Below are positions 20,476-53,754 of a stretch of 64,000 bases of DNA, one piece after another. Under the pieces are notes generated by a model. It was not told where the DNA came from. It was given only the letters and a program-made list of their open reading frames with translations, and ran no database searches. Source of the DNA: a virus; the IMG/VR virus record IMGVR_UViG_3300032308_002010, positions 32,001 to 96,000 of that record; one strand, written 5' to 3'. The stretch's first letter is position 1, and each line of letters opens with the position of its first letter. Both the position numbers and the translations under genes were made by a program.

Positions 20476-20487
20476 GGCCTCCGTGCC
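20476..20487 (-). promoter_or_regulatory. RBS hairpin GGC-ACGGAG-GCC upstream of the sheath gene (CsrA/RsmE-type fold)
   Basis: SD lies in an ANGGAN hexaloop closed by C-G; 3-bp stem. Confidence 0.5.
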
Positions 20488-20571
20488 TAAATTTTACGTG
20501 TGTGCGGTAGGGCGTTCAGGTCGTAGTATACACAACTACGGGTTTGCAAAAAAAACACCCCATAAAAATTC

Positions 20572-21282
20572 TTAACAAGACAGTAAATCTGATGCCTTGA
20601 AGACAATCCGCTTTAGGCGCGGCGCATGCGGCTGGAGCGACCAAGCTTCCTCGGCAACGTATGCAACAGTCACAGGGACGGCATATCCCTGAGCGACCTC
20701 TTGAACTTCTCCTATGCCGCCGACTTCGGCGACGTAAAAACGAAACAAATCCATCTGGTCTCGGATCAGCGGCGAGAAGTTGATTAAAAACTTCAAGACC
20801 TCTGTTGCGAGAAATTCGGTTTCTGCGCCGGCAGAACTAAGGCAGTATATCGTATGACTACCTTCCCACAGTCCGGCGTAACTTACTTCTCCAGTATAAT
20901 CACTGGAGCTTGCAATGTCACCAATAGTTTGTTTTTGCCAGCGCCACCCATTTCGTTTAATAAGTACAGCTGGTCGCTTATCGGCGGTGTTTGGTGACCA
21001 CCGCGTAATACTTTCTATCAAAATACCGCCCTTGTTGTCGCCGGCGTCGGAGGGGCGCCAAGCGCCAAGCGTTTCTACGTGCCGGCGTATACGCGGTTCC
21101 TCTACATTAGCTGGATCCGCAAAGTGCCCCATTAATAATTGCCGCAAAAAACCAGTCATTACGTGCGGCCGTGTGCCGTACGAGCAAAGCGAACTAACTT
21201 TTTCGACTCGGTTTTCGGGGCTGCTGCCGGCCGGGAATTGTGCTTCAATTTCCGGCGGGTTTGGGTCGTCGCAGGTGCTCAC
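20572..21282 (-). CDS. Tail completion/terminator-like protein
   Basis: 236 aa between neck and sheath genes; RPAVLIKR...SHTIYCLS...ETEFLA pattern; GTG start with AAGGA. Confidence 0.5.
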   Translation of the reverse strand: MSTCDDPNPPEIEAQFPAGSSPENRVEKVSSLCSYGTRPHVMTGFLRQLLMGHFADPANVEEPRIRRHVETLGAWRPSDAGDNKGGILIESITRWSPNTADKRPAVLIKRNGWRWQKQTIGDIASSSDYTGEVSYAGLWEGSHTIYCLSSAGAETEFLATEVLKFLINFSPLIRDQMDLFRFYVAEVGGIGEVQEVAQGYAVPVTVAYVAEEAWSLQPHAPRLKRIVFKASDLLSC

Positions 21283-21396
21283 CGGATTTGTCCTTTAAAT
21301 TTTTGTCGTACATATCGCCTGACGCAAACAAACTTATCTTTGGCGGCAAAATTCGAATTTTGTCTAACCGCGGTTCGGCCGGATTTTTTTTGGTCA

Positions 21397-22629
21397 TCAG
21401 ATATCCCAAAAATTGTCTTTGACGTTTGGCGGCGTTTCAACAACACGTGTAACTGCCGGCTCGGGTGCCGCAGTAAATTGTTGCGGCGCGTTGGTGTTTA
21501 CAACAGTAACAAAATCAACGTCTGGTCCGTACTCGCCCAACTTGCTGTATACGATAGCATACTGACCAGCATCCAACGCGATTGACTGCGCCCAGCGCCC
21601 GTTTGCCGTTGTTGATGTTACACCAAGCGCTAGATTTTCTGGTGTTTCAAAACCGCTAACGTCAAAAACACTCTTCTCATAAATACGTATAGACGCCCCG
21701 TGAATTGGGCAGCCGTCTTCAGTTTTGTAAACAAATCGATCGTTTCCGCCATAGTTTTGGTCGACCGGTACAGCGCCACAACCCTCGACCGGTAAGGTGG
21801 GTCCAACGCGCTCCGCCGGCTCGCCGCCCACTTCGATGGCGTAGGCAGTATTGCTAAACGGCAGCAGACCCATTTTGACTTGATATACAATCGGCACGTT
21901 TCTAATCGCCGCGGCAATTTGAATGGTCTCAACAAGCCAACGTTCGTCGCTGGAACCGTTGACCCAGATATCGCTTTTGTTAATAGCCGGAAAGCCTACA
22001 AGCCGCGCCGTGATATACGGATTGTTGCGCGTCATTCCTTTGAACTGCGCGTCTACATCTTCTTGAATAGTCTGAGTCGATAAATCCCAGCACTGTAGTG
22101 ACAGCGGCGGATGATAACCAACTTCGAAGCCGGTGCCGTTGCAAACAGGGCAATCAGAGTCTAGTACTTCTTGTGTTAACTGGTCGCGGCACCTGCGGCA
22201 CGGTTTTCCGAAACGAAACGGTTTTAACAGATAACCCGGAACCGCAACATATTTAAACCGCAGCTGTTCCTTGCGAATTATCTCGCGCGCAATTAGCCAG
22301 TCTTTCTCGGGTATGTCGCCGTAGCAATTAGCAGCCTGTGAGACATACACACTCGTCGGTGTAGTTAGTACAACGCGATAGTGATCCAGCAGGTCGTATC
22401 CGGCTTCGCGCCATTCTGGATCTGACGCCGTGTAGCCATTTACAACAGGCGGACCGATGTTGACCCAGTCTACGGCGTCGCGGAGCCCGGTCTTTCCAAG
22501 CTGCAGTTGAAATACGTACGGCCCGGGTTCGTTAAACGTTCGCTCTAACTGCCACCAAACGCGAGTTGTGCCGCGGACCATATGATCCACTGAAACTCGG
22601 CGGAACGGAAAGATGCGGGACTGCGGCAT
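21397..22629 (-). CDS. Neck / head-closure protein with CxxC...CxxC and a C-terminal Ig-like domain
   Basis: KPCRRC...DCPVCNGTGFEVGY motif; located between adaptor and tail terminator genes. Confidence 0.55.
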   Translation of the reverse strand: MPQSRIFPFRRVSVDHMVRGTTRVWWQLERTFNEPGPYVFQLQLGKTGLRDAVDWVNIGPPVVNGYTASDPEWREAGYDLLDHYRVVLTTPTSVYVSQAANCYGDIPEKDWLIAREIIRKEQLRFKYVAVPGYLLKPFRFGKPCRRCRDQLTQEVLDSDCPVCNGTGFEVGYHPPLSLQCWDLSTQTIQEDVDAQFKGMTRNNPYITARLVGFPAINKSDIWVNGSSDERWLVETIQIAAAIRNVPIVYQVKMGLLPFSNTAYAIEVGGEPAERVGPTLPVEGCGAVPVDQNYGGNDRFVYKTEDGCPIHGASIRIYEKSVFDVSGFETPENLALGVTSTTANGRWAQSIALDAGQYAIVYSKLGEYGPDVDFVTVVNTNAPQQFTAAPEPAVTRVVETPPNVKDNFWDI

Positions 22630-22689
22630 TGCTTATTTGAGCCTCCGCGCGGGTCGACATAAAAATATCATGTCAAACCGCGCAAAATA

Positions 22690-23682
22690 TCAATAACGAA
22701 TACGGATTGCGTCAGTGTAAGCCGAGTATTTATACGTCGAAGAAACCTCGCCGTAGCCACCCTCCAGATTGATACTGGCCTTTGTGGCGCGCACCCACTC
22801 GCGATACGCCTGCCACCGCATCTGGCCTGCGCGCTCGTAGCTGGCCTCTTTATTTTGGTCGTTTACTGACAACCCGGCCGCGGAGTAGTCAAACTGATTG
22901 CGGCGAAACTGCTCGGCCACCATCATGAATAAATTTGCGCAGATCCCCTCAAGCCAGTGATATCTAAACGGAAAAGATTGAGTGTTGTATACGGCGTCAA
23001 TTGGGGGCGGGATTTCGTTCCAGTACATAACAGGGCGCGCAATGGCTAGGGCAATCTCCGCGTCGTCAAACATTAAGCCATCGAGCAGAAAACTCTCGCC
23101 CGGAGCTGAGTCGCGGAGATGCAAACGGATCTCGGCAATACTCGGAGGTCCGCCCGGCTGGTTCACGCTATCAAACGTGCTGCGGGCGATTACCACCGAA
23201 AACGTATTAGAAAAGATTACACACGGCTGGTTACTGGCTTGCGCCGGCACACTGACAAGCGCCATCTCGCCGTAATACACGCCCGGGACGCTTGTGGCGT
23301 TGCTAGATAACGATACAGAGACTTTGCCTGTCTCGGGCGCCACAATCGTTGCCTGCACTTCTACGGGCGGATTCTGATTACCCAACGACAGCTGTTCTTT
23401 CAGCCGTAAAACCACCTTAAAGTCCTGCGGATCGTCGCACGCCGTCAGGCTCACCGGGCGGCCTTCGCGGTCGTGCATTGTCCACTCAATCGTGGCGCAC
23501 TGCCCCTGCGTCAGCGTAATCGCCCGCATACGAGTCAAAATGGGCTGGCCATTAACGCCAGATATCGGCGCGCTAACGACGTTTTGGCCGACGCACGAAA
23601 CTGGCGTAATAGATTGGCCGTTTGTGCTACCGTTGCAACACGGCACAATGGGGTGTTCAGCTGGTGTGGCGATGACGACCAT
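22690..23682 (-). CDS. Head-tail adaptor (neck) protein with an N-terminal Ig-like (BppU-like) domain
   Basis: C-terminal EIRLHLRD...FDDAEIALAI...YWNEIPP...RNQFDYSAAGLSV resembles adaptors; first gene after the capsid-module terminator. Confidence 0.55.
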   Translation of the reverse strand: MVVIATPAEHPIVPCCNGSTNGQSITPVSCVGQNVVSAPISGVNGQPILTRMRAITLTQGQCATIEWTMHDREGRPVSLTACDDPQDFKVVLRLKEQLSLGNQNPPVEVQATIVAPETGKVSVSLSSNATSVPGVYYGEMALVSVPAQASNQPCVIFSNTFSVVIARSTFDSVNQPGGPPSIAEIRLHLRDSAPGESFLLDGLMFDDAEIALAIARPVMYWNEIPPPIDAVYNTQSFPFRYHWLEGICANLFMMVAEQFRRNQFDYSAAGLSVNDQNKEASYERAGQMRWQAYREWVRATKASINLEGGYGEVSSTYKYSAYTDAIRIRY

Positions 23683-23714
23683 GTGTACCTCCGTGTAACA
23701 ACTACAGTATAAAC

Positions 23715-23747
23715 AAAAAGGGCCGGCCGCTTACGCAGCCAGCCCTT
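23715..23747 (-). terminator. Intrinsic terminator closing the capsid module
   Basis: GGGCTGGCTGC-GTAA-GCGGCCGGCCC-TTTTT: 11-bp stem, GNRA loop, U-tract. Confidence 0.85.
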
Positions 23748-23772
23748 CGTGAGTCAAACAGATAAGTTAAGC

Positions 23773-24093
23773 TCAGTCCCAACCTTCCGGGCTCTTGGTG
23801 CCCAGCGCGTTGTCATCGAGCTTAAGCTGATCGACGCTGCCGTCGTCCTCGTCGGTGAGGTAAACAGCCGGCGACTTAGTGATGATCAAGTCGCCGTCTT
23901 CCAGCGCCGTTTCGAGCGCTTTGAACTGCCGCTGACCACCACGACCGCCCTTGCCGACCGTCGAGACGAGATCGCCGGGGACGGTGTACGTCTCGTTGTT
24001 CGCGAGACGCTTACCGTGCGCGCCGAGGAAGCCAAACACTCGGGCGGCGCCCGAAATGTTTTTAACTGTCGTGTATAAACCGGGTACTGCCAT
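23773..24093 (-). CDS. Small capsid-module protein (possible decoration protein)
   Basis: 106 aa, GGAG SD, last gene before the terminator, codon bias like the capsid gene. Confidence 0.5.
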   Translation of the reverse strand: MAVPGLYTTVKNISGAARVFGFLGAHGKRLANNETYTVPGDLVSTVGKGGRGGQRQFKALETALEDGDLIITKSPAVYLTDEDDGSVDQLKLDDNALGTKSPEGWD

Positions 24094-24112
24094 TGTTAGT
24101 TACTCCATTTCT

Positions 24113-24502
24113 TCAGGATGCGCTTTGCAGAGCCGCGGCCGCAGCAGCCTGCAGCGTCAAAACAGCCTGCGCAATCGCAGGTTGATTAGCCGCTGCGCTT
24201 GCTACGTCGCCGTAAGCAGCCGCCTTTTCACCAGTGCCGCCAAGGCCCGCGGCCGCAAGCATCTCGTCAAGCTGCTTGTTAGCAACGTTGAGCGAGGATG
24301 CTTGCGCAGCCGCGACCTTTTCTTGCTCCGCCGTGTAGAGCACATGAAGCTTGGAGGCAGCGGCCCACATTTCTGCGGCTTCGCCTTCCGTACGCGGCTG
24401 AATGCCGTGCGCGGCAAGCTTCTCGAAGAAATACGGCGCGGCAAGTTCCGACACGATTGTGGCGTAAGCTTGCTCAGCCGCTTCTTTAACAGTATCAGAC
24501 AT
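24113..24502 (-). CDS. Ala-rich head-module protein with K-x-A motifs
   Basis: 129 aa; FEKLAA, EKVAAA, EKAAAY; AAGGAG SD. Confidence 0.55.
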   Translation of the reverse strand: MSDTVKEAAEQAYATIVSELAAPYFFEKLAAHGIQPRTEGEAAEMWAAASKLHVLYTAEQEKVAAAQASSLNVANKQLDEMLAAAGLGGTGEKAAAYGDVASAAANQPAIAQAVLTLQAAAAAALQSAS

Positions 24503-24536
24503 AACGTGCTCCTTTGGGTTTAATTCCTACACGGCA

Positions 24537-25463
24537 TCACTTGAAGTTAACGCGAGCCAGACCGTTGGTATGGCCGAACGAGCCGCCCGAAGTCTGGTAA
24601 GCGAAGTACTCAAGCATGTAAGCTTCACGACGGATGTACATCGTGGTGGGCTCCAGCTCGTAGTTCTTGCCGATGAACTTCGGCGACGCGAACATGAACA
24701 GCGAGTCATCGGGGACAAGATCGCGCTTGATCGTGACGATCCAGCGGCAGTTGAGGAAGTTCGTCTCCGCCCAACCGTTCTTGATGATGTCCTGCGAGAA
24801 GTCACCGCCCATTTCGTCACGGCCGAACTTGAGGAGTTCCTTGATCGTGATGTTATTCACGAGGCAGGTTTCAACCTCAAAGTGCGACGGCGTGCGGGGC
24901 ATAACTTTCAGCGCGTCAACAAGGGTTTCACGCGTGATGCCGCCCGAAATTTCCTCGTACTGCACAGCGCCGCTAGCAACGTTGGCAACACCCGGAGTCG
25001 GAAGCACGGCGTTGAAGGCGGCAATAAACTTGCCGTCTTCTTCAGCCAGCATGTCCTTGATCATGTTGTCCGACAGCACCTGCCGGATGTCGATTACGTA
25101 CGTACGCAGCTCGTCGACGTCCTTCACAGCGCGGGGCGACACGATCCGGTCAAACATGACGCGGTAGCGCGGGCCACGGATGTAGAAGTTAATCGGGAGC
25201 GTCGCGAACGGAAGCGACACAGCCGCCGGGGAATCGGGCTCCTTGTCCACAACCTTAACGGGCTTGTCAGTATCAACCTGACGGTCGAGCTCGTCGTTGG
25301 TGATGGTCAGCGGCGGCATGATCCGCCGGTAGAACCCGTCTTCACGCATCTTGGTGCGCGTGAAGTCGTTAACCGCATCAATGGCCTGCTTCTGCATGCC
25401 GGGGGTGTCAAGCTGCTCAAAGAGCGTTTCGTTGAGCAGTTGGATCTCTTGCTGAGTGGGCAT
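24537..25463 (-). CDS. Major capsid protein (HK97 fold)
   Basis: About 308 aa downstream of protease and scaffold genes; REDGFYRRIMPP, DELRTYVIDIRQVLSDNMIKDMLAEED; strong codon bias; GGAGG 8 nt before ATG 25463. Confidence 0.8.
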   Translation of the reverse strand: MPTQQEIQLLNETLFEQLDTPGMQKQAIDAVNDFTRTKMREDGFYRRIMPPLTITNDELDRQVDTDKPVKVVDKEPDSPAAVSLPFATLPINFYIRGPRYRVMFDRIVSPRAVKDVDELRTYVIDIRQVLSDNMIKDMLAEEDGKFIAAFNAVLPTPGVANVASGAVQYEEISGGITRETLVDALKVMPRTPSHFEVETCLVNNITIKELLKFGRDEMGGDFSQDIIKNGWAETNFLNCRWIVTIKRDLVPDDSLFMFASPKFIGKNYELEPTTMYIRREAYMLEYFAYQTSGGSFGHTNGLARVNFK

Positions 25464-25467
25464 TTTG

Positions 25468-25483
25468 GGAACCTCCATGTTCC
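25468..25483 (-). promoter_or_regulatory. RBS hairpin GGAAC-AUGGAG-GUUCC upstream of the major capsid gene (CsrA/RsmE-type fold)
   Basis: Perfect 5-bp stem with an ANGGAN hexaloop containing the SD; matches (A/U)CANGGANG(U/A). Confidence 0.6.
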
Positions 25484-25503
25484 TGAATTAGTTAGGGATT
25501 AGA

Positions 25504-26085
25504 TCACGGATCAATGGTGGCCGCAGTGCCAGCCGGCAGGTACACGCACCAGAAGGAGAGTGTATCCACGCCATTGTGGTTCTTCGACGCGCCACTCGAA
25601 ACAACACCGCAAACCGGGTTTACGTACTGCACGGCGCTGGCCTTCGTCAGCACACCCTCAACGGCAGCGCCGCCAGAGGTGGGAGCAGTCAGAAGATCGC
25701 CGGGGTTGTACGTCACCGCGCTACCGCCGGACGTCTTCACGTACTCGGTGGTGGCGATTTCATAACCACCGGTCGCAACAAGACCCGACAGCTTGCCCGA
25801 GGGCGAAACTGCTTGGTGCATGAAGTTACCGGCCGCTGTGGTACCCGGATTGCTGACGTCAGCATCCGTCGAACCGTTCAGCAAGAAAATCGCGACGCCC
25901 GTGGCAGAGAGGCCCGGAACGAACACGTCCTTGCCGCCCTCTTTCGAGAGATGCACGACGCGACCGCGCGGGACATCATAAGCGACTGTGCTCAGCAGCT
26001 TGGCCGAGTAGTCGAGGGCCGTCATATCAAACCAGCCCTTTTTGACGTCAAGGCCGTGTTCAAACATAAGATCGGGAGCAGGCAT
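25504..26085 (-). CDS. Capsid decoration/cement-like protein
   Basis: 193 aa immediately upstream of the capsid gene; GGYEIATTEY...YNPGDLLTA is beta-tulip-like; high-expression codon bias. Confidence 0.6.
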   Translation of the reverse strand: MPAPDLMFEHGLDVKKGWFDMTALDYSAKLLSTVAYDVPRGRVVHLSKEGGKDVFVPGLSATGVAIFLLNGSTDADVSNPGTTAAGNFMHQAVSPSGKLSGLVATGGYEIATTEYVKTSGGSAVTYNPGDLLTAPTSGGAAVEGVLTKASAVQYVNPVCGVVSSGASKNHNGVDTLSFWCVYLPAGTAATIDP

Positions 26086-26089
26086 TGTT

Positions 26090-26103
26090 AGACCTCCGTG
26101 TCT
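26090..26103 (-). promoter_or_regulatory. RBS hairpin AGAC-ACGGAG-GUCU
   Basis: 4-bp stem with an ANGGAN hexaloop containing the SD of the decoration gene. Confidence 0.55.
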
Positions 26104-26139
26104 TTAGCAATTGGAAACGTGTTCCGGTAAGGGACGAAC

Positions 26140-26565
26140 TCAGGTAGTGGGCGGGTTGAGACCAAGGCCCGTAAACAACTTTACGTCAGAAGCCTTGAGG
26201 CGACCATCGCGGGCACCCACATACCCGCTCGTCAGGCTGGCTGTCGGGTCATAGCTGGCGGACTTTGTAGCCACCGGCGTGCCAAGACGAGCCATTTCAG
26301 CTGCGTTTTTATGCGCAGCTAATTTGATAACAAGTTCCATCGTGCGCACCGGGTCTTGAAGGGCGGCGGCGAGCGCTTCCTTCTGGTGGGCCTCGATCCG
26401 CTCGTTCTCCACGCACGCCTTGATGGCTTCGGGGATCAGGTGAGCCAGCTTTTCGCCGGTTTCAACCTGCGCCTTTTCGGCGGCGGCGGCTTTGGTCATC
26501 GCGGCATCGGAGTAACCGATGTAGTCGATGATCTTCTGTACGAGCGCGTTATTTTCGGTAGACAT
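26140..26565 (-). CDS. Helical head-module protein
   Basis: 141 aa; TKAAAAEKAQ, TKSASY; RBS ACACGGAGGT. Confidence 0.55.
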   Translation of the reverse strand: MSTENNALVQKIIDYIGYSDAAMTKAAAAEKAQVETGEKLAHLIPEAIKACVENERIEAHQKEALAAALQDPVRTMELVIKLAAHKNAAEMARLGTPVATKSASYDPTASLTSGYVGARDGRLKASDVKLFTGLGLNPPTT

Positions 26566-26581
26566 TAAAACCTCCGTGTGA

Positions 26582-27922
26582 TCAACGATTCACGAGTTCA
26601 AGAACGTGCTGCTTCATCATGTCCCGCAGCTGGCGCGAACGCTTTGTGCGAGCCTCTTTGACTTGAAACCGGCCAGCACGCTTAAAGTTTACAACAGCGC
26701 GGCCGATGGCGTCTAAATCTTTAGCAGCAGCCATCTTCGGCTCTTCCATCGGCGGCATACCCGCGTCGGGCGCAGCGCCGGCTTCGGGCGGCATGCCGCC
26801 TTCTGCGCTAGCACCGCCACCGGCCCCGGACAGAGCTTGCAGCAACGCTTCCGGCGGAATGCCAAGTTCTTCAAGCGCCATGGCCAGCTCTTGAACAGCT
26901 TCGTCTTCCGACGGCTCGCCGCCAACAGCTTCAGGACCCATGTCGCCACCACCTTCGGCGCCCATCATGGCGTCAAGACCGGCGGGTGCAGCGTCACCAG
27001 CAGGGGCATCGCTCATACCAGAAGCGGCGTCTTCAGGCGCAGAGTGATCTTCACCTTCGGTCGCTTCTTCGGTCGGATCGGCGGCGGCGGCCTTTGAGTT
27101 TACAAAACCGATGAAAAGGTCGGCCATTTCGTCGGCTTCGCGAATTGTGTTAGCGCACACTTCGCGAACGGACGCCTCAGCGGCTTCCTTGTTGAGCCCG
27201 AGCTGTTCAGCCAGTTCATAACCAGCCTTGAACGCAGCAGCCTTGTCGCTGCGAAGCGCGGCAAGATCCGAACCTTCGATCTTGCCGTCGTGGTCGGTGT
27301 CAAGTTTGTGCTGGTCGCCCTTCAGCTCGCCGGTCGACTCGTTTTTTTCTTCAGACTTCTCTTCGGTCTTTTTCTTTAAAAAAGCCGGCATCTCAGCCGC
27401 CTTCTCGTTGTTCAGCTTGCTCGTGCCGAAGTTGATGAGGTTGGCAAGAATGTCGTTGCCAAGGGTGCCGGCTCGTTCGCGGGCTTCCTTGAACGTAACC
27501 GAGCTGTACTTCTCACCGTCGTTGGCCTTGACCGGCGACGACGTGCCCGGATCATCCTTATCGCCCTTGAAATCTTTTTCGTTGGACGGATCTTCGCCAG
27601 TCGCCTTGGCCGAGACGCCGATGTTTGTCTGAACTTCGTCTTGACGACCTTCTTGCGACATCTCAGGTGTGTTGTCTACAGCGAGCGCACCCTGCTGCTT
27701 TTTGATATCAGCTTCGTACTCGCTGGCGCGCGCGCCTGTGCTGGCGTTCTGCACGCCATTGTCCGCGCTGGTCGTCGGATGCGAGGAGGCACCTTGGTAG
27801 CCACCCGGATCGGAGGGCACCGGGCCGGCGGACTTTTCAGCCGCAGTCTTAACGGGGCTCTGCGCAATCTCCGCGGCAAGAGCATTAAGTTGATCAAACA
27901 GTGAACGTTGCATCCGTGCCAT
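26582..27922 (-). CDS. Scaffold-like / internal head protein (acidic, low complexity)
   Basis: 446 aa between protease and capsid genes; several K-x-A motifs; EF-hand-like loop DTDHDGKIEGSD. Confidence 0.6.
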   Translation of the reverse strand: MARMQRSLFDQLNALAAEIAQSPVKTAAEKSAGPVPSDPGGYQGASSHPTTSADNGVQNASTGARASEYEADIKKQQGALAVDNTPEMSQEGRQDEVQTNIGVSAKATGEDPSNEKDFKGDKDDPGTSSPVKANDGEKYSSVTFKEARERAGTLGNDILANLINFGTSKLNNEKAAEMPAFLKKKTEEKSEEKNESTGELKGDQHKLDTDHDGKIEGSDLAALRSDKAAAFKAGYELAEQLGLNKEAAEASVREVCANTIREADEMADLFIGFVNSKAAAADPTEEATEGEDHSAPEDAASGMSDAPAGDAAPAGLDAMMGAEGGGDMGPEAVGGEPSEDEAVQELAMALEELGIPPEALLQALSGAGGGASAEGGMPPEAGAAPDAGMPPMEEPKMAAAKDLDAIGRAVVNFKRAGRFQVKEARTKRSRQLRDMMKQHVLELVNR

Positions 27923-27965
27923 GACTTTCTCCTTTGGGGTCTAACCGTTTCCGATTAGCTTCCGT

Positions 27966-29423: not shown

Positions 29424-29425
29424 GT

Positions 29426-30382: not shown

Positions 30383-30384
30383 AA

Positions 30385-33341: not shown

Positions 33342-33346
33342 AACAA

Positions 33347-34279: not shown

Positions 34280-34302
34280 GCTATTTCCCCAGTATGTGCC
34301 GC

Positions 34303-34722
34303 TTACCGAAGCGTTGGCGTTTCGACGGTGACGGTCAGCACGAAATTCTTGGCGCCGCTACCGTTCGGTTTGATTCGCAGATACAAAAACCGCTGCGGAT
34401 TTGACGGCGAACCATCGCGATTAAGATAGGCCACGTTTACGTCGCTGTTCTCGGCAATCGCTACGACGTCTTGATCGGATACGACGTCAGCAAAGTCCGC
34501 CAGACTAAGCACGTGAAATGCTTCAGCCGGCAAAGTATTATTCGGCGCTGTGTCCTGCTTGCTGGAATAAAGGTCAGCCTCAAACTTGTTGTCGGCGCCG
34601 GTTAGCTGAACGAGTGCGTACCCGCGCAAAATTGCCCGGTGCGGCATCTTTACCGGCACAGTTGTTTCAGTGCCGCTTGGCGCAGTAAACGTAGTGGTAC
34701 CCGACCAAATCGTGCTAGCCAT
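34303..34722 (-). CDS. Hypothetical beta-rich protein
   Basis: 139 aa ORF with AAGGTG SD. Confidence 0.5.
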   Translation of the reverse strand: MASTIWSGTTTFTAPSGTETTVPVKMPHRAILRGYALVQLTGADNKFEADLYSSKQDTAPNNTLPAEAFHVLSLADFADVVSDQDVVAIAENSDVNVAYLNRDGSPSNPQRFLYLRIKPNGSGAKNFVLTVTVETPTLR

Positions 34723-34731
34723 TTTTCACCT

Positions 34732-37113: not shown

Positions 37114-37194
37114 GGCCAGCCTCCATGCTGCGCTCAAAATTAGACACAGTATTAATTTACTGCGTCGAAGTCTCTATATCCTACAAAAACGGGC

Positions 37195-39075: not shown

Positions 39076-39076
39076 G

Positions 39077-39316
39077 TCACGGCGTCCAAACTATGTTTTG
39101 CAACGACTTGGGCTGAAAGTCAGTTACAACAACTGTTTTATTGATACCTAGCGCCCGTAACATAGGATGAAAATCTTTTTCACCCACTGTCGAATACACA
39201 ACGGCTTCGTCGACCTGAATGGCGACAAATAACGGATTGCCTAGATCGTCTTCGACAACGACGCTGTGGGCTTTCTGTTCAGCGGGTTGAAGGCCGTGCT
39301 GCGTTTTAACCAGCAT
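39077..39316 (-). CDS. Small hypothetical protein between the RNAP genes
   Basis: 79 aa, overlaps the upstream stop. Confidence 0.5.
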   Translation of the reverse strand: MLVKTQHGLQPAEQKAHSVVVEDDLGNPLFVAIQVDEAVVYSTVGEKDFHPMLRALGINKTVVVTDFQPKSLQNIVWTP

Positions 39317-40031: not shown

Positions 40032-40052
40032 ACAACCTCCATGTTTAACGAT

Positions 40053-43000: not shown

Positions 43001-44456
43001 CTTTTCGCGGGACGTACTTGAGCTTGCCATTTACAAGCGCCGCAACTACGGGCAACCCATTGTCTTCTTCACCGGGAAATACCAACGGCGTATCAGCTAG
43101 TTCTTGCGGCGTCTTGTACACCTTGTCGCCGGTTTTCATATCTACAACCGGCGTATACACCTTGCCGTCTGAGCCTTTCATGGCGCCGCGGGCAAACCGC
43201 ATATCAACGCCCACTTTTCCAGACTCGGGCGTGCGCAGGTAGTCGATAAACCCAAGATGGCTGGGTTGAACTGAGCGCGACTCAGCTGGCACGGCGTCCA
43301 GTGAGCCGATGCCCCCTTCGCCCATTCGGGTCACGCGCGTTTGGTGGTCAAAGATCTCGGCCGGGTTGATTTCTTCTAGGCTCGACCCAAGTCCGCTACC
43401 AATGAGCGCGGCTGAGATCGCCTTGTCGAACACGCCGGACGGAATGTGATCGATCGACTTTTTAGCGGTGGCTTTCCAGAGCAGCTTATTAAGCGACTGA
43501 CGATCTTTAGTAAACCGCTCTGCAATAAGGTCTTCCGGGCCGACGACAGACTGGTACACCATGTTGTCGCGGTCGTCGCTCTCGGCCTCGCGGCGATTGA
43601 CGGCGATAAGTTTTTTGGTGATCGCCAGAATAGTTTCCGGCGTCATGTTTTTGTACTCAGACCCCAACGTTCGGCGTGTAACTTCTGGGTCGAGTTCCGT
43701 CTTTGCGAACTCGGCAGCTACGGCTTGAGCTTTAGCGCGCGCGTCGGCACCCGCAACTTGTTTGTTAACAAGCCGGGCGTAGATCTTGTCCATCGTGCCC
43801 GCGTCGCCCTTCTCCATGTTGACGGCGGTAATCTCGTTGCCCCATGCCTTGCGGATGTCCTGATCTGACACGCCCATGGACTTGAGCAACGGCATAAGCG
43901 GGATCTGAGCCTGCCCGATGCTGATCTTGAACACACCGGTTTTGGGGTCGAGGAAGTACCGATGCGAACGGCCTTTACCGGGCAACGTGTTTACGTGCGC
44001 CTCGATCTCGCCGTTGTCTTTCTCGCGGGTAAACACGCCGGGGCGCAAGCGCATCTGGTGGGCCAGTGTGTACTCAACACCACCGTTGACGAACGTGCCT
44101 GAGTCGGTGAGATACGGCACGTGTGCGATCGTGGCGCGGCGCTGGCCAACAGGCTGGCCGGTTTTGTTATCAGTAAGCGTCCACGTACCTTGTAGCCGCC
44201 GGGCAAGTGTCCCTCTGGAAAGGACAGCTTTCTTCTGATCTGACCTTGTAAAACGGTCAGGTCCCGAGTAACCGACATCTTGAAGCTGCAGCGTATAAAG
44301 ATCGTTCTGCAGCGGCTTAAGGCCCTGCGCGCTCGTAAGCGCCTGATTAAAAATGTTATCCCGCATCATGCCGACATCGCCAAACGTGCGCATCGTGGGC
44401 GCAACCGGCGCGGGCATCGTCGGTGATTTTAAATCAGGCAGTTCGGGGGTTGGCAT
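40053..44456 (-). CDS. rpoBC: Multisubunit RNA polymerase, beta fused to the beta' N-terminal (catalytic) part
   Basis: beta motifs VPYLTDSGTFVNGG, TPESGKVG, MGSRMFTQALPL, NYEDAVVISES, GDKLTGRFGDKGVV, MKLHH, GAKRVGMLD; then beta' motifs VDLVGRAVITP, NRAPVLHR, GADFDGDAM. Confidence 0.92.
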   Translation of the reverse strand: MPTPELPDLKSPTMPAPVAPTMRTFGDVGMMRDNIFNQALTSAQGLKPLQNDLYTLQLQDVGYSGPDRFTRSDQKKAVLSRGTLARRLQGTWTLTDNKTGQPVGQRRATIAHVPYLTDSGTFVNGGVEYTLAHQMRLRPGVFTREKDNGEIEAHVNTLPGKGRSHRYFLDPKTGVFKISIGQAQIPLMPLLKSMGVSDQDIRKAWGNEITAVNMEKGDAGTMDKIYARLVNKQVAGADARAKAQAVAAEFAKTELDPEVTRRTLGSEYKNMTPETILAITKKLIAVNRREAESDDRDNMVYQSVVGPEDLIAERFTKDRQSLNKLLWKATAKKSIDHIPSGVFDKAISAALIGSGLGSSLEEINPAEIFDHQTRVTRMGEGGIGSLDAVPAESRSVQPSHLGFIDYLRTPESGKVGVDMRFARGAMKGSDGKVYTPVVDMKTGDKVYKTPQELADTPLVFPGEEDNGLPVVAALVNGKLKYVPRKEAQFSLPNMDSTFSTLSNMVPIKSMIKGHRVIMGSRMFTQALPLVNAEAPLLQSAKADDEGVSHEDEMGEKLGATRATERAQVVDVTPDGIVLRDKDGNKKTIDLYNEMPYNRKTFLHQTPLVKPGDTVEPGQLLARSNFTDQKGSAALGLNLRTAYLPFRGKNYEDAVVISESASKRLTSEHMYQHEAEWDDNTHVGKKAFVSLFPTEYDKKYLDNFDDDGAIKKGTAVKFGDPLVLVAKKKDSVYGKVHRGRAGNFTNDTITWEHHAPGIVTDVMHTKKGVSVVVKNQAPMDVGDKLTGRFGDKGVVAEIVPDDQMPKDRDGNPFEVLVSPLGLISRINPAQVIEAALGKVAAKTGSSYKLKDFDNKTDLIEFAQKELSKHGLSDTEDVIDPETGRKIGGVLTGSRFFMKLHHTSESKAQGRSMGAYTAEGTPAKGGSEGAKRVGMLDLGALLSHGAGKVIRDAKMVRGQANPEYWSQFMAGYTPPLPKVPHVYEKFVTQLKASGINVVRKGTRSNLMAMTDKDVDELAGARELKSSETVDWKGRLKPIAGGLFDETLTGGHGGNRWSKITLHEPLPNPVMEDPIRRVLGMTEKQFRSVLAGREQLGDKTGPVAIKAALERINLPKAIEQARLDIKSGRKTLRDAAVRRLGFLKSAETTGVHPKDWMINKVPVLPPLFRPVSTMGSKKLPLVADANYLYKELLDANDTLKEASGTLADYGDERLSVYDSMKAVSGLGEPQQPKNVERNVKGFLRHVFGNSPKYGTVQRKLLSSTVDLVGRAVITPNPDLDMDEVALPEEKAWDIYKPFVVRGLVRRGLPRMQALQAVEDKNKEAGAELDRQMSSRPIVINRAPVLHRYGMMAFYPKLTKNKVMEVNPVITKGFGADFDGDAMQYHVPSTEDAAKEAVEKMLPSKNLFAASTFKAHYVPNKDYQTGLYLASSRISKKSKPRVFRSKQDAVQAYRRGEIEVDTPVHIVEDNT

Positions 44457-44459
44457 GGA

Positions 44460-45314
44460 TCACCCCGCCTGCGACTGCTCAACTTGCTTCTTCAGCGCGA
44501 CGATCTCTTCGGGATCGACGTACGTCGGCAGAATACCGGCGATACGCGCTTTCGACTTTGCAGCCTCTTCAACCGCTTTTGCGCGGGAACGTTCGCGGGC
44601 GCGGTCGTACATAAGCTTCGCAGCTAAACCGCCAAGGCCCAGACCCCCGGCCACATATGTACCGCCGAGCGCCGCAGGTACACGCTTGGCTGTGTCGTAC
44701 GCGCTGGTGAGCCAGTCGAGCAACGCCTTTTTCTCGGCGGCTGCTTTTTCACTCGCCGCGTCATATGCGCTATCGAGCGCTTTGGCAGAGCCGCCCGTCA
44801 GCGCGTCGTAATATTCTTTTTCAGCGGCAGCAATTTGCTCCTGCTGATCGCGTTTCTTTTTACGCTTGTGCAGCGTTTCGATTAGTTTGTAGCCGCCGAG
44901 TCCGCCCAGTGCCGCTGCGCCAAACGTCGCGCCTGTACCGAATGACGAGCGAATGACGTTTGGGTCGTACGAGTTCTGGCCTTTGTTTGTCGCGGGCGTA
45001 AACGGCCGTAAAAAGCTGAGCACCGAGTCAGGCAGCATCTTGCCGACGCCCTCGGTGACGTTGTCGTAAATGCCGGCCGCTTTTGTCTCGGTAATCTTCG
45101 GCGTTTCTTCTTCGTTTTCTTCGTACTTGGGTTTGTTTAACGCCTGCGACAATCCGCGGGCCAGATAATACAAACTAGCAGCAGTAGCGCCAGCGCCAAG
45201 CCCGCCCAAACCAGTACGCACAATACGATCGCCCCAGAAGCGCTGGTAATCTTGGGCGGTAGGTTGGCCAACAGGGGCAGCTGGTGGGACGGCATTGTTT
45301 GCGAGTTTTTCCAT
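44460..45314 (-). CDS. Putative internal virion protein with Gly-rich hydrophobic helices
   Basis: 284 aa; starts MEKLA; TKAAG, EKAAAEKKA; three GxxxG segments. Confidence 0.5.
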   Translation of the reverse strand: MEKLANNAVPPAAPVGQPTAQDYQRFWGDRIVRTGLGGLGAGATAASLYYLARGLSQALNKPKYEENEEETPKITETKAAGIYDNVTEGVGKMLPDSVLSFLRPFTPATNKGQNSYDPNVIRSSFGTGATFGAAALGGLGGYKLIETLHKRKKKRDQQEQIAAAEKEYYDALTGGSAKALDSAYDAASEKAAAEKKALLDWLTSAYDTAKRVPAALGGTYVAGGLGLGGLAAKLMYDRARERSRAKAVEEAAKSKARIAGILPTYVDPEEIVALKKQVEQSQAG

Positions 45315-45326
45315 AAATGAGGCTCA

Positions 45327-45674
45327 CTAATTTTTGGGCGGAATCATGCCATAAACCTGCGCCCACTCTAACCAAACACGAAAATGTTTATTCTCGTCGT
45401 CCCAGTTGTCGTTGCGCTTCAGTAGCCGATACCAACCGTTCACTATTTTATCGTTTATGTCGTCAAATTCTGCTTTTTGCGTCACATCCCACAGTTCAAA
45501 CATCCGAGACTTAAAATCATACTGGATGTCGATGTTTTCCAGTTCTTCTTGTTTCAAGTCCGCGCGGTTACCGGAACCAATCACCGGAAAACCGTCGAGG
45601 GTGCCGGGCCAGTTCAAGCGGGCGTTGTTGTGCTGCTCGCCGCCGATTTCACCGTGATATTTGCGCAGGCTCAC
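45327..45674 (-). CDS. Hypothetical protein
   Basis: 115 aa ORF packed in the operon. Confidence 0.5.
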   Translation of the reverse strand: MSLRKYHGEIGGEQHNNARLNWPGTLDGFPVIGSGNRADLKQEELENIDIQYDFKSRMFELWDVTQKAEFDDINDKIVNGWYRLLKRNDNWDDENKHFRVWLEWAQVYGMIPPKN

Positions 45675-45677
45675 AAA

Positions 45678-46037
45678 TTACCTTTCTGGCCTATAGAGAC
45701 GTAACTTCCTATTTGTCTTAGCGCGGGCTGCGTACGCTTTATAAGCGGCAGCGAGTTCGCGCGCTTTCAAGTCTTCTTCGTCAACGTCGGGCTCCGTCAT
45801 CTTGCCCGCGACGTGCCCGGCTAGTCCGCCACCAACCGTGGCCAGCATGAGCGGCGTATACGCAATGTTTCCAAGCGCCTGAAACGAGTCAGCCATTGTT
45901 GGCAGCTGCATAGCCGCGCTTTTTACAAACGCCTCGGCGGCTTTGATGCGCGTTTCAAGCGCAGCGCCTGTTAACTGCTCTTCGGCGCAGCGGCGAAGAA
46001 ACCCGAGTTTAAAAGCTTCTTTTTCATTGACATCCAT
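45678..46037 (-). CDS. Small putative internal virion protein
   Basis: 119 aa; EAFKLGF leader, FVKSAA, then GGGLAG hydrophobic helix. Confidence 0.5.
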   Translation of the reverse strand: MDVNEKEAFKLGFLRRCAEEQLTGAALETRIKAAEAFVKSAAMQLPTMADSFQALGNIAYTPLMLATVGGGLAGHVAGKMTEPDVDEEDLKARELAAAYKAYAARAKTNRKLRLYRPER

Positions 46038-46038
46038 G

Positions 46039-46533
46039 TCAAAACTCTCCGGGCAAAATAAGTTTTTTGGTTGGCGCGCCGACAGTAAAGTCGGGCGCGG
46101 CGTACCGTCCGGTGTCTTTTCCTACCGGTAAGGCACCCGGCAACGCAGATGTAAAATTTGCGCTGCTGGCCAAAGATATCTTACTCTTTCTGCCCGGACG
46201 GTGTCGCATAAACCACGCATCAACGGCGGGATCATCGCGGTCGCCTTGTTCTTTTGCTTCTTTTGACACGGCGACCATGTTTTCAATAGCCTGCTGCAGT
46301 TCTGCTCGGTCGGCTGATAACCACGCGGCTTTTCCGGGGTTTTCAGCGGCCATATGCCGTAACCGCTTGGCCTCGTCGCTTAGAGCCTGCGCCCGCTGTA
46401 GGAACTCTTTGCGGGTAAGCACAAAAAACTCGCCGGTTTCCTCGTCATGCAGGCAGATGAAACCGTTTTGCGCGTAAAATTTAAGCCCGCGATACGAATA
46501 GCATTTGCCTGTTGAGCCGTGAACAGCGGTCAT
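46039..46533 (-). CDS. Hypothetical protein
   Basis: 164 aa ORF with AAGGTG SD. Confidence 0.5.
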   Translation of the reverse strand: MTAVHGSTGKCYSYRGLKFYAQNGFICLHDEETGEFFVLTRKEFLQRAQALSDEAKRLRHMAAENPGKAAWLSADRAELQQAIENMVAVSKEAKEQGDRDDPAVDAWFMRHRPGRKSKISLASSANFTSALPGALPVGKDTGRYAAPDFTVGAPTKKLILPGEF

Positions 46534-46541
46534 TAAACACC

Positions 46542-46946
46542 TTATTTACGTGACGTACCAGACCGTAGCGTACCGTTAGAGCCGGACACGGTCGTAGGAA
46601 TTGGACACCCGTCTTCGTCGCAATCTTCTTTCTTAACGGGCGGAAGCGGATTTGCCTGCAGACGCATCGACGGTCGCGGGCCGGTATTTTTCATCTCGCC
46701 GGACGTGTCGCCTGTATTTGGCTCGCAGTCGGGGCAGTCGGTCCACGGATGGTTGCTGTCGCCGGTCGGGATCTTACCGGTACCGTTACAGCGCTTGCAG
46801 TCTTTGGTGTCAACAATCGGCTTGGTTACCGGCGTATCAGGAAGCAGAGAAGCATAAGCAGCCTCTGTAGCGACCACCCCGACAAAGTCTTTTTTGGGCG
46901 GTTCTGCATGGGTCACCGGCAGTAGCGCTAAAAGCCATTCGATCAT
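46542..46946 (-). CDS. Protein with a DnaJ-type CxxCxGxG zinc motif
   Basis: CKRCNGTG...CPDC; short hydrophobic N-terminus; ATG 46946 after AGGTG. Confidence 0.55.
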   Translation of the reverse strand: MIEWLLALLPVTHAEPPKKDFVGVVATEAAYASLLPDTPVTKPIVDTKDCKRCNGTGKIPTGDSNHPWTDCPDCEPNTGDTSGEMKNTGPRPSMRLQANPLPPVKKEDCDEDGCPIPTTVSGSNGTLRSGTSRK

Positions 46947-46976
46947 CGTGATCACCTATTAAAGTTTACCAGTTCA

Positions 46977-48002
46977 CTAGATCCGACCGCGCGCGCCGTA
47001 ACTGCGCAGCTTTTTCGGGGGCCAGCCGTTCACGCCAGAAATCGCCACCATGTAACGATTTTTGATATCAGACCACTTAGCCCAGAAAGCGCCAACAGGA
47101 ATATCAACGACAGTCCCAAAAATACGGCGGCTTCCGGCATTCCACGCACCCCAGCTGTTTTGGACCAATACAAGCGGCTCGCCATAAAGTTTTTTAATCT
47201 CGTCGCGGTCGTCTACGCCAAGGTAGGCGAGCGCGTGCGCCCAAGAACCTTTACGTTTACTTACGCCGTTTAAATCACGCTCCGACGAAAATCCCTCGCT
47301 CCCGCAGCTACTCACGCAGTAACCATTGGCGAGAAGATCGCGTAGCGCCTCGTACTCTTCGATCTCGGTGATCGTCTGGACGAGGTGCAACTTACCAACC
47401 TCGCGCCACGCGTCCGGCGGCGTTTTTGAGCCGTATATGCCGGCGTTGCGCGATGAGTACTGCGTAAAATCAACGCCAATCTCGTCATACTTCTTGCGCA
47501 ACCACAAGCCGCTGTCGTTGAGCATAACTTGCGCGGCTTCGGCGCAGCTCCAGCCGTCCCCGCCGTGGCGGCGCCAATTGTAAATCGCTTCAGTACTCAG
47601 CACACCGTTGAGCCGCGCAGTGTCGCTTACTTCCGGGGCGCCCTCAAGCCGATTACTATTCGGGTCAGGGAGGCCGCTGGTAATCTCGCAGCACATTGTG
47701 CCGAGTGCCGCGTTTCGGCTCGACCAACTTACGCAATCACCGCGACCTTGGGCTCCACCCGGAAGGCAATCCGGGTAGAGCTTCAAGATCTCTAGCACTG
47801 GAAGACTTAACTTTCCTTTTCCTGTTTCTTCCAGTGAATATTCCGAGCACGCCATGGCGCCATCGGGGATGCCGCCAGCGGCTTTAATTTGATCGCGGAG
47901 CGCTTCAGCGGCTTCTGGGTTGCCATACGCCCCCACAAAACCCTTTTCATACGCTGCCACAACGTCATAGACGTTTTCAAAAAATTGCTCGGTGTCGGCC
48001 AT
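46977..48002 (-). CDS. Papain-like (C1-type) cysteine peptidase
   Basis: QGRGDCVSW (Gln/Cys), WAHAL (His), QNSWG (Asn). Confidence 0.8.
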   Translation of the reverse strand: MADTEQFFENVYDVVAAYEKGFVGAYGNPEAAEALRDQIKAAGGIPDGAMACSEYSLEETGKGKLSLPVLEILKLYPDCLPGGAQGRGDCVSWSSRNAALGTMCCEITSGLPDPNSNRLEGAPEVSDTARLNGVLSTEAIYNWRRHGGDGWSCAEAAQVMLNDSGLWLRKKYDEIGVDFTQYSSRNAGIYGSKTPPDAWREVGKLHLVQTITEIEEYEALRDLLANGYCVSSCGSEGFSSERDLNGVSKRKGSWAHALAYLGVDDRDEIKKLYGEPLVLVQNSWGAWNAGSRRIFGTVVDIPVGAFWAKWSDIKNRYMVAISGVNGWPPKKLRSYGARGRI

Positions 48003-48020
48003 TGTATTCTCCTGCTTAAA

Positions 48021-48347
48021 TCAAGCGGTCGGCTCTTCGCCCTTGGTTTCACTCACGAGTGTCACGCCCAGCGAACCGGGCTGCGCCGGCGGCAGCGTGT
48101 CTTCTGCAACAAACGTCAGCGCGGCAGGCTCGGAGCGGTTGCCGGCGTCGTCGATGTCGACCACACGTAGCTCCACAGACGAACCCTGCTCAACTAAAAC
48201 GTCACCTAACTCAGTTGCCGACGGCTCGTAAGCACGAACCTCGCGAGCAGCTTCGGCGCCGTTTACGTACACCGACAGCTCGCGTGTTACTACGTCAACG
48301 TCAACAACCGGACCAACCGAAACACGATACGTCAAAATATCAGCCAT
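48021..48347 (-). CDS. Small FN3/Ig-like beta-sandwich protein
   Basis: LRVVDIDDAGNRSEPA pattern; ATG 48347 after AGGAG. Confidence 0.5.
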   Translation of the reverse strand: MADILTYRVSVGPVVDVDVVTRELSVYVNGAEAAREVRAYEPSATELGDVLVEQGSSVELRVVDIDDAGNRSEPAALTFVAEDTLPPAQPGSLGVTLVSETKGEEPTA

Positions 48348-48477
48348 AGTATTTAAACTCCTAATTTGAAACACTTTTAAACCTGTTGGCGACAGCGGCG
48401 GCGCAAAAAAATGCGCCATAACTATCAACAACCAAAAAACCAAGCACAGTAAAACAACAGCTGCTTCAGCGCCCATG

Positions 48478-48930
48478 TTATTTAGCCGCTACCACCGAAC
48501 TTGCAACGATGTCGCACGCCTCTCCGAGTTTTTTCAGCGTTTCCGGGTTACCGGGCATCACGTCATCGGTTCCAACTGCCGTCTGAAACACGCGCTCAAT
48601 TGCAACGTCCAGCCCGGGGTACTTGTTCACCTGCTCGATTGCCAAATCTAACGTGCGGCCGTGCAGCTCTTCCCACTTCTCTGTCGTCGTGATGCGGTCG
48701 GGCGCTGTCGGGCGTTGAAGTACTGTTTTCAAAGATGTGTATACGTCGTAGATCCGTGCGCGATCAGCAGCAGTGCCGCCGGTCAGCAGTTTGACGATCT
48801 CAGCGTCTGTTGCCGCGTCGGCGATAACGGGACGAACAGCCGGTTTATTAAACACCGGCAGCGTCGGACCGTTTGGAAAAACTAACGACGTTAAAAGCAG
48901 TAAACCGGCGACCCAAACAAGCTTTTTCAT
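48478..48930 (-). CDS. Signal-peptide-bearing (exported/membrane) protein
   Basis: MKKLVWVAGLLLLTSLV N-terminus; ATGA overlap with the upstream gene. Confidence 0.55.
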   Translation of the reverse strand: MKKLVWVAGLLLLTSLVFPNGPTLPVFNKPAVRPVIADAATDAEIVKLLTGGTAADRARIYDVYTSLKTVLQRPTAPDRITTTEKWEELHGRTLDLAIEQVNKYPGLDVAIERVFQTAVGTDDVMPGNPETLKKLGEACDIVASSVVAAK

Positions 48931-49205
48931 ACAACACCCTTTGACGGTTGTTCGTACTCCACGATCACGCGCAATAAAGACGTGCAAGCATCTACGCCAC
49001 TTTGGCAACCCTCAGCCGCCAATTTATCGCGCAGCTTGGTAACGGCAAGGATGTCGTCCACAAGCGGAACGGCAATAGACTCCTGCACAATCGGACCGCC
49101 GACAACAGCCGACGCGCCGCGAAGTCTGGCAAGAATTTCATTGCGATAAGTTACCGCAAGCAAAGCTACAAACAGCGCGCTGCTTACTAATTGAAATGTA
49201 GTCAT
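48927..49205 (-). CDS. Small membrane protein
   Basis: 92 aa with an N-terminal TM helix; GGAG SD. Confidence 0.55.
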   Translation of the reverse strand: MTTFQLVSSALFVALLAVTYRNEILARLRGASAVVGGPIVQESIAVPLVDDILAVTKLRDKLAAEGCQSGVDACTSLLRVIVEYEQPSKGVV

Positions 49206-49240
49206 AGGTTCTCCAGTTTGAGTCAGGAAAAGTTATTTTA

Positions 49241-50068
49241 TCACGTTTGCGGAACGAGCACATACGGGCGGCCGTTAATTATCAGTGTACCGCCGACGTT
49301 AATGCCGGCGTCTTTGGTGAGTGGATACGCTTTCGTGCGTTTGCCATACAGCTTGATAATTTCTGCGATGTCGCCTTCTTGCGGCTTTGTGACGTTTGGG
49401 TCGTAGTAAGGCGCCATCAGATTGCCGGCATTCAAATGCGGCAAACCCAGCGCGTGCCCTAGTTCATGGCAGATGACGGCCACCGCCATGTTGAAGCTCC
49501 AGTCCTCAGCTTCGTCAAACATCTGATCGAGCTGGACGTTTTCTGCAACACCGCACGGCAGCTCACTCCACGCTAGCGTACCGCCTTTGTTATCTAAACC
49601 GCTTTTTTTGCCGGCACCTGACCGCGCATAGATGTTTGCTTTTTTATGCGTTTCAACTCGCACCGGATCAATAGCGCAAACTTCGGCCCACTGAGAAAAC
49701 GCAATGTCGTAAGCCTCGGCGACTTGCGCGTTGGTTAAGCCGGGCAGATGCAGCTCGTGATAGTACGAGATGTTCGGCATCGGCCATTTGCACGGGTCGC
49801 CGTCAGGTGAGGTGATATTGAAGTCGGGCAGACCGCAGCGATGACGATTAATACGATGCGCTGTTTTTGGGCCGACTGTACCGGTCGGATTTAGGCCGTT
49901 GAACTCCTGAAACGTACGAACCGCTTTCTGCAGCTCGGCGCCTTTGATTTTCTTGACTTGCGCCAGCGTTTTGTCGCCGAAATACCCCAGCACGTGGAGC
50001 CGACGTAGAATCTCGCTAATTGGCAAGACATGGGCCGTACTTGGTTGTTTCGCTGGCTTCCGTGCCAT
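49241..50068 (-). CDS. Peptidoglycan-binding domain + matrixin (M10-like) zinc metallopeptidase
   Basis: KAVRTFQEFNGLNPTGTVGPKT (PG_binding_1-like), RCGLPD (cysteine switch), HELGHALGLPH and LMAPYY (metzincin Met-turn). Confidence 0.85.
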   Translation of the reverse strand: MARKPAKQPSTAHVLPISEILRRLHVLGYFGDKTLAQVKKIKGAELQKAVRTFQEFNGLNPTGTVGPKTAHRINRHRCGLPDFNITSPDGDPCKWPMPNISYYHELHLPGLTNAQVAEAYDIAFSQWAEVCAIDPVRVETHKKANIYARSGAGKKSGLDNKGGTLAWSELPCGVAENVQLDQMFDEAEDWSFNMAVAVICHELGHALGLPHLNAGNLMAPYYDPNVTKPQEGDIAEIIKLYGKRTKAYPLTKDAGINVGGTLIINGRPYVLVPQT

Positions 50069-50088
50069 AATGCGCGTCCCTGCAAAGG

Positions 50089-53661: not shown

Positions 53662-53675
53662 AGCGCGCTTTCAAA

Positions 53676-53747: not shown

Positions 53748-53754
53748 AATGATG

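Follow-up and report, generated by a model that had tools for sequence, protein, structure and literature searches.

In an uncultured phage with a genome of 194 kb, the Shine-Dalgarno (SD) sequences of a set of genes, among them those of the major capsid protein and a sheath-like protein, lie in the loops of short hairpins that match the known binding site of CsrA/RsmE, and the same genome carries a csrA gene. The hairpins were studied in a window of 64,000 nucleotides, bases 32001–96000 of the viral record IMGVR_UViG_3300032308_002010 (193,815 bp, 95% complete), and positions below are those of the window unless the genome is named. The minus strand holds nearly all genes, the genome being read almost wholly in one way, and virion genes are located in the window region. 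On balance, the sequence evidence makes it more likely than not that a CsrA-family protein, probably the 96-aa CsrA of the phage itself, binds these hairpins and limits translation.

Hairpins over the ribosome-binding sites

A simple script with a bias towards strong SD sequences called gene starts over the whole genome, and the 115 GGA within 3–12 nt of a start formed the set of ribosome-binding sites (RBSs) tested. In the permutation control, the 5′ flanks were swapped among the same RBSs, while each SD and its 3′ flank were retained. NNGGAN hexaloops with a stem of at least 3 bp were found at 21 RBSs against 6.1 expected, a count that none of 20000 permutations reached (p<5e-5), and with Watson-Crick pairs only there were 15 RBS hairpins against 2.0 expected. 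The first-pass annotation, which read the window from its letters, had advised such a comparison with SD-keeping controls, and the enrichment is there. At the GGA of RBSs the hairpin rate is 18.3%, compared with 5.5% at GGA inside genes (Fisher p=3.7e-6).

The loops fall into distinct classes. The ACGGAG loop is hairpinned at 7 of 9 sites and AUGGAG at 5 of 5 (together 12/14), compared with 1 of 14 for the canonical AAGGAG. The class can be described as an A-(C/U)-GGA-G hexaloop with a C-G closing pair, situated 4–11 nt before the start codon, with the GGA of the SD in the loop. GGAGG is rare on the coding strand of the window (17 copies), and 7 of these 17 belong to CA[CT]GGAGG, each 4–9 nt before a start; the other strand of the window has no CA[CT]GGAGG. 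The strand asymmetry is 10 vs 2, with 1–2 in the reversed-pattern control.

Three styles of RBS occur in the genome: an open AAGGAG, a hairpinned C-AYGGAG-G, and AGGUGA, which contains no GGA (examples at 34722, 17184 and 3584). The AGGUGA style is conserved at some virion genes. Avoidance of GGA at the RBSs of csrA-bearing genomes was looked for and not seen. A promoter-like motif shared upstream of the hairpins, CGT[AG]AA[AT], was dismissed as too common to have meaning.

Whether pairing itself is conserved was assessed in relatives. Searching viral contigs with the capsid protein yielded 65 related metagenomic loci (56–100% identity), the near-complete ones being up to about 235 kb. The major capsid gene (start 25463) is preceded by GGAAC-AUGGAG-GUUCC (25468–25483, minus strand; minimum-energy fold frequency 0.48), and among the relatives the C-A(C/U)GGAG-G loop of this RBS is kept while the stem is changed on both sides, giving GGAAC/GUUCC, AGAAC/GUUCU, AAGAC/GUCUU, GGAC/GUCC, UUC/GAA, GCAC/GUGC and GAUC/GAUC. 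In loop-anchored alignments, the covariation score was 0.35 at the capsid RBS against 0.12 shuffled, and 0.42 against 0.17 at the 193-aa gene upstream of the capsid gene (AGAC-ACGGAG-GUCU, 26090–26103, minus strand; start 26085). For each gene, 0 of 500 shuffles reached the observed score, and slid controls stayed at or below 0.18. The first-pass annotation had claimed covarying stems for the sites in general; the alignments of relatives sustain this for the capsid and 193-aa genes, while the sites of the 330-aa and 141-aa genes are kept only in part.

The constant parts of the hairpin are equally distinct in these two alignments. The closing C-G pair is present in 33/35 capsid orthologues and 29/32 orthologues of the 193-aa gene, and the penultimate pair is A-U, U-A or G-C. 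The GGA is invariant, and A at loop position 1 is invariant in the 193-aa gene and invariant or above 90% over the two alignments. Loop position 2 is C or U, varying even between near-identical phages, and purines are avoided. When RBS hairpins of at least 4 bp were pooled from four csrA-bearing genomes, position 1 was A in 55%, compared with 21–24% in controls and 21% in genomes without csrA. Pairing with the tail of the 16S rRNA would favour AA ahead of GGAGG, and A-pyrimidine is therefore not explained by anti-SD pairing.

In the 446-aa gene (26582–27922), near relatives have an open AAGGAG RBS, and distant relatives (L039, L043, L045, L048 and L053) carry the same loop on A-U-closed stems of 4–6 bp, such as GAGCCA-AAGGAG-UGGCUU; the genes that make up the hairpin set thus differ from lineage to lineage.

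The high-affinity site of RsmE is an ANGGAX hexaloop placed directly on a stem, with a C-G closing pair followed by U-A or G-C, where the SELEX consensus has A (PMC4005645). The phage sites fit each point of this consensus, which upholds the resemblance to a CsrA/RsmE hexaloop over the SD on which the first-pass annotation was built, and, with their GGA standing 5–11 nt ahead of the start, they overlap the SD/start region as do high-affinity CsrA sites that block the 30S subunit.

The csrA gene and its distribution among relatives

The window itself lacks csrA, as had been noted earlier, and a search of the whole genome, advised at that time, located the gene outside it at genome 11081–11371 (minus strand), 20.6 kb beyond the window start. 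The encoded protein of 96 aa matches PF02599 at 68.2 and 67.4 bits (cut-off 27) and PHROG 9500, 'CsrA-like regulator', with E 6.8e-13. In this family, we take L2, L4, R6, R44 and E46 of strands 1 and 5 to be the RNA-contacting residues of importance. The best match among solved structures is RsmE in complex with the hcnA RBS hairpin (2JPP), and in the alignment to it L2, L4, R6, K7, R44 and E46 are retained, while T5 is replaced by S, V42 by I and Q29 by R; the positions matched to RsmE stay kept across 24 homologues of the clade. The two-copy model of the phage CsrA reached ipSAE 0.35 (best of three controls 0.00), a mark attained by 21 of 30 proteins solved as one-chain pairs and by 0 of 23 solved as single chains, which shows likeness only, CsrA dimers being already solved. 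The runs of this model share at least 96% of contacts with pLDDT of at least 69, and strand 1 is paired with strand 4 of the partner. A search for CsrA homologues returned close relatives only and gave no pointer to the host.

The SD of csrA itself is GGUGA without GGA, and three GGA stand in codons 6–13 (L001 1600–1647, minus strand). Nowhere else in the genome are ANGGA so densely clustered as in this 5′ part of csrA; the cluster is partly retained among relatives and hints that csrA may be autoregulated. A small acidic open reading frame (ORF) of 80 aa (MGWNDR...SSQN[VI][ED]P; genome about 10956–11198, L001 1232–1474, minus strand), which has no family match, overlaps the 3′ end of csrA by 14–118 nt in near and mid-distance relatives. 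Its product might partner CsrA or antagonise it. A distant csrA-bearing relative (L072, G030:C1, ~11.3–11.7 kb; 69% GC) encodes a protein of 163 aa in which two CsrA domains are fused in tandem, possibly a single-chain 'dimer', and CAYGGAGG occurs 37 times on the coding strand of that relative's genome.

The gene and the hairpins occur together. Among 19 relatives at least 90% complete, csrA is found in 16, all with the CANGGAGG hairpin core at their capsid RBS; the three without csrA, which are the most distant by capsid identity (56–60%), lack it. Salmonella phage Arash and Vibrio phage D69 have neither csrA nor the hairpin, and their capsid sites are open UAAGGAG or UAGGAG. Whole genomes of relatives were also examined with a motif-centred test that needs no gene calls. 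The odds ratio of RBS hairpins was 1.8–3.0 in four csrA-bearing genomes (p 2e-2 to 7e-6) and 0.9–1.5, not significant, in three without csrA; a genome with a divergent CsrA-like gene (1.7) and an incomplete genome in which no csrA was found (1.4) gave intermediate values, both not significant. CAYGGAGG occurs 9–37 times on the coding strand of csrA-bearing genomes vs 0–11 times for the reversed control, and of the genomes without csrA, G039 and G040 show no excess and G041 is ambiguous (11 vs 3). In the capsid tree, the five phages without csrA (the three relatives, Arash and D69) form an outgroup grade, and the hairpin-bearing RBSs all fall in one clade with support 100/99.

Individual sites and their genes

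All nine sites listed in the first-pass annotation are present where it had placed them, on the minus strand, as are all sites described here. The canonical form, (stem)-C[A(C/U)GGAG]G-(stem), 4–9 nt before ATG or GTG, is shown by seven of the nine, and those of the 410-aa 'head closure' gene and the protease gene are weak. Besides the capsid and 193-aa genes, the canonical seven comprise the sheath-like, 330-aa, 141-aa, 793-aa and 241-aa genes. The hairpin GGC-ACGGAG-GCC (20476–20487) of the 1078-aa sheath-like gene (start 20468) appears in the minimum-energy fold and is kept in 12 of 13 relatives. At the 330-aa gene (start 23682), UAC-ACGGAG-GUA (23686–23697) is absent from the minimum-energy fold, and its stem is kept only patchily among relatives. 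The 141-aa gene (start 26565) has AC-ACGGAG-GU (26570–26579) with a 2-bp stem only, and is counted as a weak member because the same 2-bp form is found in 19/47 relatives. CAGC-AUGGAG-GCUG (37117–37130), with G-C as the penultimate pair, precedes the GTG start (37113) of the 793-aa gene, where a competing alternative fold is predicted, and AAC-AUGGAG-GUU (40034–40045) precedes the 241-aa gene (start 40031).

The gene of the peptidoglycan-binding (PG-binding) M10 peptidase (start 50068) has two GGA sites within 50054–50084 and is the sole clear two-site target. The listed UGC-AGGGAC-GCG over the SD is not formed in the predicted fold, in which UGGC-ACGGAA-GCCA (50054–50067, codons 1–5) is formed. 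GC-GCGGAG-GC before the 410-aa gene (22641–22650) was rejected as a class member, having a 2-bp stem and G instead of A at the loop start, and not being conserved among relatives.

Additional members of the class lie outside the earlier list, several of them elsewhere in the genome. One of those added, GCGCUGA-ACGGAU-UCAGUGU (57208–57227), precedes a 234-aa HNH-like gene (start 57207) and appears in the centroid fold; its loop is the same as that of hcnA/RsmE, with A-U instead as the closing pair. A separate 13-bp hairpin with a GCGGAG loop, at genome ~5793–5830 (minus strand, outside the window) directly after tRNA-Thr, hides the SD and AUG of a GNAT acetyltransferase gene and is a stable structure, in contrast to the short hexaloop sites.

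Of the gene names given in the first-pass annotation, only three have any support. 'Major capsid' agrees with the protein search, in which the 308-aa product is 28% identical to the protein annotated as major capsid in Arash, 'sheath' with weak tail-sheath matches of the 1078-aa protein in PHROG (E 2.5e-9), and the PG-binding M10 peptidase was identified by Pfam; the remaining names found no support. Most phage proteins, including most hairpin target genes and the neighbours of csrA, have no family match in Pfam or PHROG. A nucleotide search of cultured phages gave no match, and the protein search gave capsid proteins at 28% identity only.

The virion-gene region also contains a tRNA-Asn (GUU) at 53675–53748 (minus strand). 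A complete tmRNA gene (Rfam 127.7 bits), with the tag peptide GAYAPALAA, adjoins a tRNA cluster outside the window, at genome 113912–114256 (L146 18012–18356, minus strand), and the genome has nine further tRNAs.

Candidate readers of the hairpins and their meaning

If CsrA acts at these sites, the A-N-G-G-A-G hexaloop on its short C-G-closed stem would present the GGA of the SD in the loop, and a CsrA dimer clamped on the loop would cover the SD, shutting out the 30S subunit. The ratio of free CsrA to mRNA would in that case set translation of about ten genes besides those of the capsid, its two upstream neighbours and the sheath-like protein. We infer the binding, its direction (repression) and a role as threshold or timing gate in a near one-strand genome, where premature translation from read-through transcripts would be suppressed until late mRNAs outnumber CsrA. 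Profiles of the Hfq, S21 and S1 families had no match in the genome; RegB had none either, a weak result as the control genomes gave no match. With FliW likewise without a match, CsrA is the one family of known RNA-binding regulators that the searches made here detected.

Several observations weigh against this proposal. The ViennaRNA z-scores of these short stems are near 0 and none is significant, stems of 3–4 bp are marginal alone and frequently missing from the minimum-energy fold, and in the minimum-energy or centroid fold the hairpin is seen at the capsid, sheath and HNH-like genes alone; it is therefore covariation and enrichment that speak for pairing, and not stability. Well-studied CsrA-repressed mRNAs usually offer the dimer two sites, and most phage sites, the peptidase gene excepted, have no second GGA within 45 nt. 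No antagonist came to light: Rfam over the whole genome gave tRNAs and the tmRNA only and no sponge RNA, no GGA-rich intergenic region exists in the genome, and the FliW profile found no match there that could be a protein antagonist. The first-pass annotation had taken the targets to be structural genes for the most abundant virion proteins, which is overstated, for genes of GNAT, HNH-like and SEC-C-motif proteins bear the hairpin too. A repressor site on the mRNAs that the phage needs most is odd in itself. The association of csrA and hairpin is clean, yet it lies on one branch and amounts to one joint gain, a single event, and therefore no probability can be attached to it. One relative, G033, has csrA yet capsid RBS stems of only 2 bp. 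Finally, five unrelated csrA-bearing phages of 40–63 kb show no enrichment of RBS hairpins, and therefore carrying csrA alone implies no self-regulon; self-directed sites are by the same result special to this clade. The weak predicted stability, for its part, fits a site clamped by a protein better than a stable block.

The hairpins might also work without any protein, exposing a strong GGAGG SD in the loop, insulating it from long-range pairing or stabilising the mRNA, in favour of high translation. The sites do bear the strongest SDs of a GGAGG-poor genome, several of them mark genes expected to be highly expressed, and the closing C is forced by pairing with the last G of GGAGG. Nevertheless we regard this as unlikely, since it leaves unexplained the near-invariant A at loop position 1 and the avoidance of purines at position 2, as well as the lack of hairpins at the same genes of relatives without csrA, which use open UAAGGAG, and the stems are too weak to insulate.

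Another explanation is that CsrA of the host binds the sites while that of the phage is directed at host mRNAs, such as those of defence or metabolism, a role already proposed for the CsrAs of other phages. In the literature, phage CsrA is seen as a means of manipulating the host, and the presence of csrA in phage and host is correlated (PMC8450108, PMC11879866); the motif fits the generic specificity of CsrA/RsmE as well. This division of labour seems quite unlikely here, because it does not explain why the hairpins are confined to the csrA-bearing phage lineage, nor why the five other csrA-bearing phages are without such sites.

A variant of the CsrA proposal would be a checkpoint coupled to assembly, in which the mRNAs of the capsid, its neighbour and the sheath stay silent until a phage protein removes CsrA, so that synthesis of structural proteins would be tied to the state of assembly or of DNA replication. 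The remover could be one of the structural proteins or the product of the conserved 80-aa acidic ORF overlapping the 3′ end of csrA. The model for this variant is the CsrA-FliW-flagellin (hag) system of Bacillus subtilis, where CsrA represses an abundant self-assembling structural protein via a hairpin over the SD, with two sites. The phage resembles hag in its candidate hairpin over the SD of an abundant structural gene; it differs in that its genome has no FliW match and its sites are mostly single, and assembly feedback is not indicated by the phage data. The checkpoint is doubtful, at about the level of the host explanation.

A further reader could be some other, unrecognised RNA-binding protein or endoribonuclease of the phage, such as a repressor that binds operators or an enzyme that cuts GGAG in the manner of RegB. 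Most proteins of the phage have no family match, and hairpin translational operators are well known in phages in general. The MS2 coat protein with its hairpin, T4 RegA and T4 gp32 are phage proteins that bind RNA at RBSs of phage genes and set their translation, and the RegB endoribonuclease of T4 acts on GGAG in the SD sequences of early mRNAs and needs no covarying stem. The CsrA family is unrelated to the proteins of the MS2, RegA and gp32 operators, which control fewer targets or use an unstructured site; with RegB, the GGAG within the SD is common to both, and the covarying stem is the feature of the phage sites. We consider such a reader very unlikely, given that the RegB (weak search), Hfq, S1 and S21 families were not found and that the CsrA encoded by the genome has exactly the matching known specificity and the same phylogenetic distribution. 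Chance, base composition or a gene-call artefact is hardly credible, for although the start-calling script favours strong SDs and the stems are short, the permutation control used the same RBS set, the motif test is free of gene calls, the orthologues covary, and the motif shows strand asymmetry.

Binding by CsrA, probably that of the phage, is the explanation we prefer, and the RsmE system can serve for comparison. In Pseudomonas protegens, the RsmE-hcnA stem-loop and RsmZ (2JPP; Duss 2014, PMC4005645) likewise show ANGGAX on a C-G-closed stem with GGA as the SD. The hcnA/RsmE loop ACGGAU and the phage loop ACGGAG are one looped-out base apart, and the site at 57208–57227 has ACGGAU itself. 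Unlike in the RsmE systems, the sites here belong to a phage's own genes, most of them stand alone, and loop position 6 is G, as GGAGG dictates; at position 29 the protein has R or K, not Q, and the phage genome yielded no sponge RNA.

The same protein family is carried by other phages (PHROG 9500; RsmM phages; F116, DC1, PTXU04_00028). Homologues of csrA in phages have been catalogued since 2020, with host reprogramming as the standing idea (PMC7366521, PMC8450108, PMC11879866), and about 1.2% of phages carry the gene (PMC7366521). Knock-down of a phage csrA gave small plaques (PMC11879866), and a 2025 study stated that a role of phage CsrA in the phage life cycle had not previously been tested. 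Whereas other phage CsrAs are proposed to act on host mRNAs, here a self-directed target set is indicated, and the literature search found no report of such a CsrA target set at the RBSs of virion genes.

With these hairpins, a CsrA encoded by a phage gains its first concrete candidate targets, a defined and conserved set on the mRNAs of the phage itself. As the sites are synthesisable RNAs of 20 nt and the protein has 96 aa, the lack of a cultured phage need not prevent direct tests of the proposal in vitro and by reporter assays. If the proposal is true, virion genes in a clade of jumbo phages would be under a post-transcriptional layer of control, and a global regulator of bacteria would have been turned to viral self-regulation.

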